NCBI GenBank assembly: GCA_964012805.1
Contig: CAXGUD010000079.1
Coordinates: 1-10,758 of the forward strand
Length of the DNA stretch: 10,758 nt
Origin: an uncultured Bacteriovoracaceae bacterium
GTDB taxonomy: Bacteria; Bdellovibrionota; Bacteriovoracia; Bacteriovoracales; Bacteriovoracaceae
Direction: 5' to 3'
Shown here: positions 611 to 7,919 of the stretch, in pieces
How positions within the stretch are numbered: the first letter of the stretch is position 1
How the letters are laid out: each line of letters opens with the position of its first letter
The notes under the pieces: model-generated
What the model saw: only the letters and a program-made list of their open reading frames with translations
Told to the model about the DNA's origin: nothing
Databases searched by the model: none
Made by a program: the position numbers and the translations under genes

Positions 611-3600
611 TCAAAGTTTAAAAATTTGATCATAAAGGGCTTTTTTCTCCTTTGGTAACAGCATATTATCAGAAGACAAGTTTAAACTCGTATTCTCAAA
701 GTAATCTTCATTATCAATTTGAGAATAAATTCCCGTTAAAGTACTTTTCACTTGATTTCTAATAACAATGAGTTCTTGTAAAGAGTTTCTATAAATCATT
801 TCACCTTTAACAACATCCTCAGGCGTAGGTAAAGGAATATAAGTGTTTCCAAACTTAACAGACCACCCTAATGGGATTGAATCCTGGGAAGAGTTATTCT
901 CGAAATGGAAGGGTAATTTTAAATTAAATACTTTATCATTTAATTTATACGCCAAGGATTTATCTAAAAAAGTTGAATCACCCAACTCATTCAATCCTAT
1001 TTTATAAAGCAAAAGATTATTTGGATTACTTTCATAAACTTTATTCAAAAGATAAATAACAAAGTTTTTTCTAACAAGAGGACTTTTGGATAAAACGCAA
1101 TAACTATCAGCAATTCTATTATCTGAAAAGCAGTCGTTTCTCAATGAGGTATTAATTAAATCCTGGTCAAGATTAACGGCTATAAATTTTTCCTGACCTT
1201 CAAAGTTATAATTATAGAATATATTTTGAAAGATTGTTTCTAGGAGCGGTTCACCAGCAATAAAAAGCTCGGTGGCTATGGCCAAATTTAACCAATGGGT
1301 TCCTTTTTCTAGTAATTGGGAATAATCATTATGATCCGTTTTATGCAAGGCCAGAGAATTTAAGTCGGTAATGGCCCGGTTAAATTTATTTCCATCACTA
1401 AGGTTTCCTTCTTTATTAATTGCAGACATTTCAATCCAAGGAATACTTTCCATGGTATAGCCTATATAACCTTTAATCTTGTCAATGTTGAAGGGAATGG
1501 GGGTTTTTTCCTTATTTTTTAATTCTGAATAAAAAAACGTTCTATAATCACTCCATATATTATCGTATACATTATATTTTAATTCTTCGAAAAAGGCTTT
1601 TCTTTCATGTTGGCTTCCCATTCTACTGATCGGTTTAAAATATGACCTCAAAAGAAGGTTCACTTGTTGATCATTTTGCTGTCGGTTACTTTTATCTTTT
1701 ACTTCGATTCCATAAAATGCCGTGACATGGTTGAAAAAATACTTATGAATCGATAAGTAAACCTGCTTTACAAAAATTTTATGAAGACATTTTTCATATA
1801 ATACAGGATCATTATTTTCCTCATTGGCCCTTTTACATTCAAACCTATAATCATTAAGCTTATCGAAGGTTTCGTCATCTTTTTCACCAGAAATATCAAA
1901 GATAAGATTTTTATACTTTGAAATATTAGTTAAATTTGAGTTTAATTCGCTTAAACATTTATTCAGAAGATGATAATTTTCATTAAAATATTTTGCCCTA
2001 GACGATAATGTTGCAAAAGATAATATCCTACCATTATAAAGATCTGATGATTCCTTTATAGTCGTACCGGAGTCAACAAACTTACAGTTTTTATTGCCTT
2101 CAACGACTTCTTTAACCAATCCAATGTTAGAATCGATCTCACAACTATTTGTTGGAAAAAATGTTTGGCAACTACCAATAGTTTCGTCGAAGGCCATTTT
2201 TTGAATTTTAACGAGATAATTGAGATCACTTTCAATTATTCCATACTCAACCATTTTTTCTTTATGGAGGTTCGCAATTTTTTGATCAAGTTCTTTTAAA
2301 TCTTTATTTATTTGGATTTGATTGTCTTGTAAGCGAGTCAAGCCTTCCATGACCTCTTTATGCATCTCCGCTTTTGGATCTGGTTTATTAGAGCCAAACA
2401 TAGCAATCACACCCGTAATAGACTCTATTGAACCCATGCCATCACTTCCAAAGTTTTCGATTGCCTTCCAAGTCGTTTCTACTGCAGAGCCAATTTTATA
2501 AGCCGTATTAGCAGCTTTAATAACACCTGGATCTATTCCTAAGTCTTCTCCAATATTGTTTAAAATATCTTTTATATTCCCTAATTTCTTATTAACAGAA
2601 CCAATAGATTCATCAATCTCCTTTAACTTATTCAATTTTTCCTCTTTCTTTTCAATCGCATCAGCTTGACCAATAAGTTGATTATATTTTTTAAATTTAG
2701 GGTCACTAATAACTTTAGCAAGATCGGGGTCTTTTTCTAATTCTTCCTTTGAAAGACCCAAAGAATCTTTAAATCCAGGAAATTCTTTCTCTAAACGTGT
2801 TAATTGCCTATTAATATGCTCATTTTCTTTTTCATGAAATTCAAGTTTTTCTTTTAACGTTGCTCGAGCATATTTATATTGAGACATAAAATTTGTATTA
2901 ACGGATATCTTACTAGTTGTATTTTTTATGTCTTGAGACTTCATGGCGGTAAAATCGACTAAACTGTTAACACCATCTTTGAAAATTTCTCCTATTTTCT
3001 TCATAGACTCTTCAGCAATCTTGACTCCATCTTTTGTTAAAAGTTGCCCAATTTTTACAATTTTCTCACTATTTTTAGTCGCAACATCTGCAACTTTCTT
3101 TAATTCTTTTTTATATGTCCCTGCTAAGTTAATAAACTCATCTAATTCCTTGTCTCGTCTTCTATTTTCTGCTTTTTGCCATTTGACATTGGAGTCATAT
3201 AATTCCTGCTCTTTTTTAGATAATTGATTAACCTTATGTTCTTCATGAATCTGTCTCAATTTCATTTTTTTGTCGTCATTACTCATATTAGGATTTTGGG
3301 TTATGACATTAATCATTTTATCTTGAACATGAGGAGGAAGATTTCCAAACTTCTTCAACACAATTTGCCTTACTGACAAATTAATTTTTTCATCAAGTTG
3401 TCTATTTTGATCTTTCCTTTTAGATGAATAATTTTTATAAAGCTTCCAACCTAATTGAGCTGCCCAAACCCCTCCAGCAATTGCAATACTTGCTCCGCAA
3501 GATATTCCAGCTGTAAAAGCACTTGCAGCACAACCAGCAGCGACTATTGCCCCCGAACCTTTTTCTGCGTAGTCCAGAATTTTTTCAGCAGTGCCATCAA

Positions 3601-7100: not shown

Positions 7101-7919
7101 TCTAAATACGTGGATGAAGAGTGTAGAACGAAAATTATAGTTCCTAACCCTGGCATCGCAGAAGTTCCTAAACCTGTCATCCCAATAAATCCTTTTAAAA
7201 ATATGTCAGATGAAGAAATAGAGAATATGAAAAATAAAATGAAAAATACTATAGATAATCTACCTCCTGCAGAAATGCATTCATTATTTGATATTCCTCA
7301 AGGTCTTTATAATGAATCAATGGAAAAAGATTGTAAATCTGGTCACAAAAAAGCTGATAGTATTTGTGAAAAAGAAAAGAAACATGTTCCTCTTGACATT
7401 AGTCAAGAGCTCATCGATGAATCAATCAAAAATAATTGCTCCACAAGCAATAGAATTGCAGATAGTTATTGTGTACTGATTAAAAACCCTCTCATTAGAC
7501 ATAATTTCATGATATATGCCTTTAATAAATCCAAAAAAAATAATTCCTCCTTTTTTCTATACGACCTAGGCTTAAAATCTGAAGGTGATGCCACTTTGTT
7601 AAATATGGCCTTCAAATATAAGTTTAATTTTCACTATGAATCGGAAAATCCTCGCGTAGAAAAGCATGAGAAGAATGCTCCTAATGGATGGTCCCTCCGA
7701 TTAGGTAATACATTTACTTCACTTCCATCAGCCGATGAGGTTATTAAAGGTCATTTTAAGTATAGAAATTCATTGGATCGATTGAAATCCGTGAGAGATG
7801 AAATGAAAGAAATCTTAACAGGTCTTTTGATTGAACAAAATAAGAATGCATTTGAAAATAATGAAGAAGCATTGTCAGAAGAAGAAAAGAAATACCTTCA
7901 CGAAATAAAATTTAAGTAA
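4155..7919 (+). CDS. Large predicted lipoprotein, 1254 aa, uncharacterised; paralog (B) of 611..4045
   Basis: Long ORF with RBS AAAGGA at 4141-4146. The N-terminus MNRFFLQPYLLFFLIGLFHG-C-SGGGD is a lipoprotein-type signal. Shares LSLxTRSILF, SNxPDP..HKE(V/I)M, WLNLxIAxE, NRIADSYCVL, PxGWS..GNT..LP and YRNSL with paralog A. Confidence 0.9.
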   Translation: MNRFFLQPYLLFFLIGLFHGCSGGGDSSGPGEEIKLTNEQRILNEKIDYKSQSTLYDVVLSGENNLSLSTRSILFNEISKNGNLTQKQLDTKYKQRVRSGDNDPELQRLVFKRNFSIGEVWEDVKDGKKISDSVMRNYLKDKPSEPLLINQYKDGFPNKEKRLELSKELTKKIANIARQNHESKNNVNMANHIISVVPRLVGASNLNLGKYKKGFEGTFDAIDKSSSYGERFFEIKGEENARNVMRQHLLSEIGLTDEKHVNDIVKEALKVMVLQKDKDKKLGYKAAVDKLNELVDKHLMKKEKAVVIDKKINDSKVLKSLEAIAAKKGKDLLEILKATGPEIHKLGKTVYQNQVKLGLLQKNIEVKGVILNQIAIDGIRDRFHENLEVIEKFVNDEMNDINEALQGEEGKISWMANYDFKRGTPSEQKSFLSQELNSSIMKNMENLSEEDKKTLQDKLKSGTIKDEDIDKLTNIDENEKRKLKGKSKQIERLSTKIKVENAFNKFGQVTRSINNAAEALGIPKSTINVVNKASKLAEAGKIAFSAFQMFTGNPLAAISALSSIKNLFSNSPDPDLERHKEIMAAIGRIAKVQEETFKLIKQLDKQIVANHRREMKKLYDIESTLDLSIGLAELMSDKVKTDCRDLFLLNTCQDDPRATNQEDCDYKSSNHTVRTPEDLFNDRILKFRNIAERKYHFEKKLRGMFDTCIDALNLNLKNYTVAKVKFFNQSNVSQDSSSEELDFTNTCADKQSVIEGEEDDVINQEGFKKCIKVKSKNAYYSLNLYFVNYQNQYFRCYSEGIENSNETCLGKTLKSFYNPIHQFDELYSQLDTIDEIASYNKQWDSYNNFFFDSNKPITSENFPYSFNNTYILFNVGFLKQVLPWAEITERIDGKHTEVITSIDELSKHRFRYTKFVTMIKNSIRWLNLSIASESMVSGIPLLPMIYRNYFHNFKAYYQKLPRKEIITDSDEKSFEDCDDEKSSKYVDEECRTKIIVPNPGIAEVPKPVIPINPFKNMSDEEIENMKNKMKNTIDNLPPAEMHSLFDIPQGLYNESMEKDCKSGHKKADSICEKEKKHVPLDISQELIDESIKNNCSTSNRIADSYCVLIKNPLIRHNFMIYAFNKSKKNNSSFFLYDLGLKSEGDATLLNMAFKYKFNFHYESENPRVEKHEKNAPNGWSLRLGNTFTSLPSADEVIKGHFKYRNSLDRLKSVRDEMKEILTGLLIEQNKNAFENNEEALSEEEKKYLHEIKFK
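7290..7472 (+). repeat. Degenerate intragenic tandem duplication, 105-nt (35-aa) period
   Basis: DIPQGLYNESMEKDCKSGHKKADSIC (7290-7367) versus DISQELIDESIKNNCSTSNRIADSYC (7395-7472). Gapless, and both copies carry C-x10-C. Confidence 0.75.

Follow-up and report, generated by a model that had tools for sequence, protein, structure and literature searches.

What are the two large genes that stand head to head on a short contig of an uncultured Bacteriovoracaceae bacterium, and what might their products do? The window (the whole stretch of DNA analysed, 10,758 nucleotides) is all of contig C79 (CAXGUD010000079.1) of a genome of 4.47 Mb and 35% GC, and its host is likely a predatory marine bacterium. 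It is incompletely known how Bdellovibrio-like predators breach membranes or defend against them. Comparative analysis showed that the two genes, designated A and B, are a lineage-specific duplication within a new, mostly single-copy protein family that includes Bd3724 of Bdellovibrio bacteriovorus, and that the pair is not a conserved unit. For the function of the family, sequence features and structural models suggest conditional α-helical pore-formers with small adaptor or targeting partner proteins, a reading to which we give a probability of about 0.42. The features of the pair were as follows.

611-4045, minus strand: gene A, 1144 amino acids (aa), of the Bd3724-like helical family (family profile E 6e-59), likely lipoprotein (LLS-C19)
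4046-4154: divergent spacer between A and B, 109 bp, AT-rich, with Shine-Dalgarno-like words ahead of both starts
4155-7919, plus strand: gene B, 1254 aa, the paralogue of A; likely lipoprotein, though its lipobox (FHG-C21) is atypical
7014-7367, plus strand: acidic/Pro/Cys insertion specific to B (aa 954-1071, about 118 aa), delimited by alignment with A

An earlier sequence-only reading had described a head-to-head pair of anciently duplicated lipoproteins. Both open reading frames (ORFs) were found intact, with 109 bp between their starts, and the 12 colinear motif pairs that it listed were all present in the translations of A and B, in the order given. A contig of metagenome run X2, which belongs to a different study from the possible source run, covered positions 3653-4395, both starts included, with zero differences; because this contig bridges the junction, the layout is not an assembly artefact. 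The A/B locus recurred in marine metagenomes: three of four runs covered 30/30 bins and the remaining one 28. No RNA data set was listed as containing it, which says nothing about expression. Pattern scans of genomes and metagenomes returned only Bd3724 itself and a B fragment from the same or a near-identical strain. From their N-termini A and B are both likely lipoproteins: the start of A passes a simple lipobox pattern, that of B fails it, and C-S-GGG stands at the same place in both. Promoter-like matches in the spacer faced both directions, at chance level across the window (45 vs 47.5 ± 7.8 in shuffles), and promoter and terminator scans of the window gave nothing above chance.

Alignment of the two proteins established their paralogy: BLASTP matched A296-946 at 25% identity (E 1e-54) and A949-1143 at 39% (E 9e-38). 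The Smith-Waterman score was 901 against 67 ± 11 (maximum 106) in 100 shuffled controls. Regional z-scores were 16 for A1-100, 1.7 for A90-380, 23 for A380-620, 41 for A620-950 and 55 for A945-1144, in agreement with the conserved C-terminal half that had been proposed. The divergent region, given earlier as aa 90 to 380, proved shorter: about A100-250 hardly aligned (4-6% identity per 50 aa), whereas A251-400 shared 16-18% identity. The insertion of about 118 aa in B had been missed.

The same genome held a third paralogue on another contig:

L001 (G000:C96), 1692-5885: paralogue C, followed by a 190 aa helical-tailed gene at 1123-1692

Full-length C corresponded to P0052 (1556 aa), which has a signal peptide without an early Cys; its first 158 aa are absent from this assembly. 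Paralogue C carries an extra N-terminal coiled coil and an insert of about 180 aa, β-rich in appearance, at the same loop as the B insertion, which is different and shorter. In a FastTree phylogeny (79 sequences, 476 columns; 5 duplicates or near-duplicates removed), B paired with P0001 of another organism (0.996) and not with A; A joined these two (0.999), C was their sister (0.88), and the IQ-TREE topology agreed. Because B groups with P0001, the duplication is older than the split from the organism of P0001, and the ancient origin claimed for it was thus borne out. A-type fragments also exist elsewhere: P0002 and P0003 were 35-40% identical to A and 22-29% identical to B.

The family itself was sparsely distributed. 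Among 1.84 billion representatives there were 44 matches at E<=0.001, mostly of 830-1060 aa, one being paralogue C itself. A profile of 34 canonical members matched in 38 of the 401 genomes of the phylum, recovering A at the E given above, and a C-terminal profile of the family, which included A and B, matched in 36 of the 237 genomes of the taxonomic family. In both searches, which scored few candidates per genome, nearly all carrier genomes had one family gene each; the phylum search scored only about two per genome, so that extra copies were possibly missed. No second head-to-head pair was found among the family matches from either search. Identity look-ups placed members in Bdellovibrio, Bacteriovorax and Halobacteriovorax, the last two of the window's own taxonomic family, and one member from an assembled genome was labelled Parachlamydia. 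Word-indexed homologue searches were insensitive (0/7450, 5/7997, and no longer forms among 7990), and a search of plasmids gave no match to Bd3724.

Bd3724 (CAE81089.1 / WP_011166032) belonged to the family at a profile E of 2e-56. The protein of locus L027 was identical to CAE81089.1 and is Bd3724 by position and length (913 aa, beside icd, Bd3723). Within the C-terminal domain it was 14-15% identical to A and B. Bd3724 shares with them the layout of a large gene plus partner; unlike them, it is a single copy, its partner (Bd3725) is collagen-like, and it is annotated only as hypothetical. Literature searches, at the level of titles and listings, found no publication on this family, and Bd3722-Bd3727 were not named in the main text of the literature searched. 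In the transposon sequencing (Tn-seq) supplements of PMC6561027, where other locus tags may be in use, no Bd3724 terms were found.

A family member of 1315 aa with a Cys-rich C-terminal extension was present in another genome of the same genus (L070 6769-14543, G002); it was not near A or B in the tree. Two genes precede it, one of 346 aa and one for an exported coiled-coil protein of 912 aa, studded with Cys and without a Pfam match.

Searches of domain libraries agreed with the sequence-only reading that the C-terminal domain was unrecognised: it had no match in Pfam, NCBIfam or the PDB, and neither protein had a confident full-length match to a characterised family there. Among all proteins of the window, only Peptidase_S8 exceeded the Pfam and NCBIfam cut-offs, and PHROGs gave nothing better than E 0.008 for A or B. 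Structure was examined through models of two homologues standing in for A and B, P0012 (full length) and L012 (C-terminal domain). Both models consisted almost entirely of helix; the only strands, three to four short ones, lay near the C-terminus. The L012 model had a predicted local distance difference test score (pLDDT) of 91 and a predicted template modelling score (pTM) of 0.91; Foldseek found nothing at E<=0.001 with it in the PDB or viral sets, or with the full model, and with the full model a single helical hairpin took up the whole of the VIA output. The C-terminal domain is accordingly a confidently predicted fold, as modelled, without a clear PDB match. A fusogen reading was dropped, the PDB sequence matches being coiled-coil noise only (HA2, designed trimers).

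Members of the family begin with a signal peptide and N-terminal helices that include hairpin 1. A coiled coil and hairpin 2 follow, then a GxxD..RH..IM motif ahead of a 65-residue helix. The last part is a domain of about 400 aa, mostly helical, in which Cys pairs are near-invariant and one helix reads AIAQ..L.G..LLP. In A and B these elements were placed as follows.

3458-3547, minus strand: A hairpin 1 (aa 167-196), without a counterpart in B; no charges, 63% G/A/S, mean hydropathy 1.60
2396-2485, minus strand: position of A hairpin 2 (aa 521-550), degenerate, hydropathy 0.43, 5 charges
2186-2380, minus strand: aa 556-620 of A, with the conserved D-x4-[RM]H-x2-[IV]M motif and a long predicted coiled coil (in the model of the homologue, a helix at 432-496)
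614-2248, minus strand: C-terminal domain of A (aa 600-1144), Cys-containing and for the most part helical, whose modelled homologue has no clear PDB match
5769-5858, plus strand: B hairpin 2 (aa 539-568), hydropathy 0.81, 2 charges; in the family this segment weakly aligns with Cry α1-α2

The hairpins are the feature that the family has in common with α-pore-forming toxins, namely one or more hydrophobic helical hairpins in a soluble exported protein, as judged by thresholds that were chosen after inspecting the family. At these thresholds, at least one uncharged, G/A/S-rich hydrophobic 30-mer occurred in 68 of the 77 full-length members (2 fragments excluded) and, among 103 long exported-like ORFs of the genome studied, in 5. 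The 30-mers lay at two fixed sites (35/77 and 56/77) and in the C-terminal domain of only 1/77. In the P0012 model (mean pLDDT 72) both sites scored below 50 (residues 94-133 and 390-435) and stood ahead of the 65-residue helix. The earlier suggestion of subfunctionalisation gained a tangible, if weak, basis: A keeps hairpin 1 and B keeps hairpin 2, the second hairpin of A being the second weakest of 72 (0.43) and the hairpin-1 region of B among the weakest of the family (0.35). By the same measure P0001 resembled B and P0002 resembled A. Because 45 of the 77 members have a single hairpin (12 with hairpin 1 only, 33 with hairpin 2 only) and 9 have none, this complementarity is only suggestive; it fits a two-component pore without demonstrating one.

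The second regularity lay in the gene neighbourhood, where the pattern was solid. A closely spaced neighbour on the same strand, apparently in one operon with the family gene, was present in 26 of 29 loci (L009-L038 minus the window's own; these are not independent, about 10 being from Bdellovibrio). The 26 comprised 13 collagen-like proteins, nine small exported proteins with helical tails, two helical ones of about 300 aa, one tail-collar protein (PHROG E 2.5e-21) and one Hint protein. Most partners were 110-220 aa long with signal peptides of their own. Of the three loci without one, one had less than 200 bp of upstream flank and two (L013/L080, L017) had ample flanks. Three candidates follow B in the window.

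7935-8351, plus strand: candidate partner, 138 aa, likely exported, Cys-containing, 15 bp past the B stop
8371-8709, plus strand: candidate partner, 112 aa, likely exported, with a Cys-rich head and a helical tail
8725-9108, plus strand: candidate partner, 127 aa, likely exported, with an acidic helical part and a Cys-rich C-terminal end

Downstream of A, window positions 1-610 held no ORF of at least 50 aa, and A thus has no partner gene of its own there. A profile of nine partner tails from other genomes, run against the 4339 ORFs of the genome, placed 8371-8709 at rank 1 (E 0.032); the gene that follows paralogue C came sixth. A partner "docking motif" that was convincing by eye is treated as unproven, the partner-tail profile being unspecific in the phylum search.

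Several further loci showed related layouts. Tail-collar-like lipoproteins at L076 7826-8476, L074 8166-9122 and L069 2466-2681 stood directly upstream of family genes; the large proteins of these loci form one clade (0.96), and PHROGs confirmed only the L022/L076 tail-collar protein. In one genus, a conserved 104 aa exported Cys-rich protein without a Pfam match (L041 1179-1490; also L043, L047, L052, L054 and L055) followed the family gene. A comparable arrangement of a small and a large gene, in which the large protein is another one, occurred at L110 2045-6401 (G108): there a 239 aa exported Cys-head coiled-coil protein lay upstream of a likely lipoprotein of 1199 aa that is unrelated and has no Pfam match. 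The exported protein at L015 442-1452, directly after a family gene, had a weak Hint/intein-like domain (E 2e-4, below cut-off), a polymorphic-toxin-like feature. At L009 2959-6804 (G016), a tandem pair of exported proteins of about 640 aa, trypsin-like by sequence reading, lay close upstream of the family gene.

The preferred reading combines these features into a mechanism in which export, lipidation, oligomerisation, membrane insertion, partner binding and target are all inferred. The large protein would be exported via a Sec or lipoprotein signal. The disulfide-bearing C-terminal domain would form the oligomer body, and the variable loop or insert could confer specificity. Co-transcribed partners, with a variable Cys-rich head and a coiled-coil, collagen or tail-collar stalk, would tether or aim the large protein. 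At the target membrane, the helix after the GxxD..RH motif may extend as an oligomeric coiled coil and carry the Gly/Ala hairpin or hairpins into the bilayer, much as modelled for Cry α1-α3. In the present bacterium a mixed oligomer could form, with hairpin 1 supplied by A and hairpin 2 by B; granted the rest of the mechanism, this last step is possible, with the odds somewhat against it. Protist grazers or unusual prey are the more likely targets, and routine Gram-negative prey is probably not one. The patchy distribution of the family fits a conflict gene. An improbable extension of the same idea is an undescribed modular attack system, made of a pore-former of about 100 kDa that would be distant kin of Cry domain I, a new C-terminal fold and interchangeable fibre-like partners, which inverted duplication would here have split into an obligate two-component pore, one hairpin coming from each subunit.

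Among known toxins, the likeness to three-domain Cry toxins was examined most closely (PF03945; Cry4Ba 1w99, Cry7Ca1 5zi1, fern IPD113 8d2j). Both have a hydrophobic helix pair leading to a long helix and a helical bundle, and there is a weak correspondence in order, as predicted, of hairpin 2, long helix and bundle to Cry α1-α2, α2b-α3 and α3-α7. A Cry1Aa AlphaFold2 "extended model" of the pre-pore, described in PMC10705909, has α2b-α3 as a single helix with α1-α2 at its tip, and the order in the family agrees with it. Hairpin 2 and the start of the coiled coil aligned with Cry α1-α2 over 57 columns (hhalign probability 52-58%, score 34-39, with 72 sequences); 25 block shuffles reached at most 17-23, reversed controls 16-19, and the N-terminal half of the family with hairpin 1 scored 13. 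In a fold search of 48,161 chains, residues 2-374 of the C-terminal model matched Cry4Ba 97-275 (Z 6.3, 157 residues, root-mean-square deviation 6.0), and IPD113 and Cry7Ca1 were also in the top 50 (Z 5.3). Language-model features of A480-1144 and of Bd3724, which are about 14% identical, both lay near the DUF684/CTXL_M and Endotoxin_N clusters (0.76-0.88, leads only).

The family differs from Cry toxins in that its bundle is broken by large inserts, in an extra N-terminal half with a second hairpin, in Sec or lipoprotein export, in its partner genes and in its Gram-negative predator hosts. Membership of the three-domain Cry toxins was rejected: there was no PF03945 row for A or B (E<=1) or for 41 members (E<=0.01), and the P0012 and L012 models had no β-rich domains II or III. 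Because the leads are near noise and the defining β-domains are missing, the family may be said to work like Cry toxins, without membership. Cephalotoxin-like/DUF684 proteins (PF27742 CTXL_M, PF05075) and jellyfish toxins of the CaTX type were the best language-model look-alikes of two distant members, at 0.82-0.88, scores below 0.9 that serve as leads only (CTXL_M 0.78-0.88, by language model only). PF27742 appeared in none of the general Pfam scans, and no search was aimed at it. CaTX/CrTX are described as pore-forming in PMC4989536. For the two-component ClyA-family toxins (XaxAB/YaxAB; Nhe/Hbl) the likeness is a functional analogy only, and the fold searches listed no ClyA-family sequence or fold match. 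Subunits of these toxins are much shorter and their genes co-directional. XaxAB/YaxAB are an obligate paralogous pair, whereas the A/B family is mostly single-copy; according to PMC6162564, toxins of this type join related subunits with unequal membrane-active parts in one pore.

Several results weigh against pore formation by A, B and their relatives. No member reached the Pfam cut-off (41 proteins, then 43), and DUF684 (PF05075) was found in 0/5 carrier genomes at E<=1. The profile alignment to Cry fell to a probability of 18% with a 24-sequence alignment, and the C-terminal domain profile did not match Cry domain I (hhalign probability 0.1%). The Cry Z-scores were within the tool's noise range for helical bundles, designed repeats scoring higher (7.7). 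The three weak leads (language model, fold and profile) agree, each singly within or near noise. Hairpin hydropathy was moderate (medians about 1.0, vs 0.85 for the best C-terminal 30-mer), and the nine members that pass for neither hairpin include paralogue C and P0001. The phylum search with the partner profile returned its training genes and four others, none family-adjacent; by sequence reading, two were in atp operons, one was chemoreceptor-like and one stood beside a 1199 aa unrelated protein. A lipid anchor would be odd for a released toxin. In expression data of PMC2797640, as far as its tables show, Bd3724 was unchanged on prey entry (1.05-1.08), and it was not found in the predation proteome tables searched of PMC12546842.

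Other expression values for Bd3724 were an RPKM (reads per kilobase per million mapped reads) of 0.33 and 39.5 with no expressed flag, in columns whose meaning is inferred from the partial header of PMC3627812 supplement 2, and 0.23-0.28 in host-independent growth, with Bd3725 similar, in the same tables of PMC2797640. Because Bd3724 is nearly silent in those data, it appears to stand outside routine predation on laboratory prey; this silence fits a conditional weapon or defence and gives no positive support for one.

The results could also be explained without a weapon. The large protein may be an α-helical platform that sits in the outer membrane of the producer itself, serves export or anchoring, and assembles or displays fibre-like partners for prey recognition or adhesion. 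We regard this as unlikely, though a serious competitor. The lipoprotein-type N-termini of A, B and the Bdellovibrio clade suit such a platform, as do the tight linkage to partners and their coiled-coil, collagen and tail-collar stalks, which are typical of fibres; moreover, α-helical outer-membrane pores made by a lipoprotein are known (Wza). However, most members fail the lipobox pattern, the partners are mostly small and have signal peptides themselves, Cry-like leads would not be expected, and the two loci with ample flanks (L013/L080 and L017) have no partner to display. Rather improbable, more so than the platform, is a scaffold or adhesin of elongated shape, at the surface or in the periplasm, in which the Gly/Ala segments pack helices or form oligomer interfaces with no membrane insertion; among the explanations weighed it is the least probable. 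It would accommodate the moderate hydropathy of the hairpins, PDB sequence matches to generic coiled coils only, and fold searches that returned mostly generic helical bundles; position-fixed, uncharged hairpins that are unpacked in the monomer model argue against it, as does the hairpin-2 profile match to Cry α1-α2, which exceeds the shuffled controls.

A further alternative is compatible with pore formation and concerns the pair alone. A, B and C may each have diversified into an independent effector with a target of its own; the head-to-head layout would then be only the trace of an inverted duplication, with no A-B complex formed. Its probability is low, between those of the platform and the scaffold. 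Single-copy members with one hairpin are common (12 and 33 of 77), so that A and B are not necessarily incomplete; no other genome matched showed a second head-to-head pair, and the variable inserts of B and C differ. Against this stand the weakness of the second hairpin in A and the poor hairpin-1 region of B, the recurrence of the B pattern in P0001 and of the A pattern in P0002, and the absence of a partner gene downstream of A.

If the preferred reading of conditional pore-formers is true, the family would be a new α-pore-former lineage joining bacterial predators to the Cry/cephalotoxin group, and A and B would be a natural example of a one-component pore turned into a two-component one. 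Even if that mechanism is wrong, there remain a new family, a confidently predicted domain without a clear PDB match and a recurring partner-gene architecture. The family is unannotated and has a tractable member in a model strain, Bd3724-Bd3725, so that the idea of a pore-former is directly testable there.

Past the small genes that follow B, on the same strand (window 9133-10757), were a 245 aa N-terminally anchored protein and then a lipoprotein-like subtilase that runs off the contig end (Peptidase_S8, Pfam E 1.5e-26). The subtilase may serve as a processing protease, or it may be an unrelated module.

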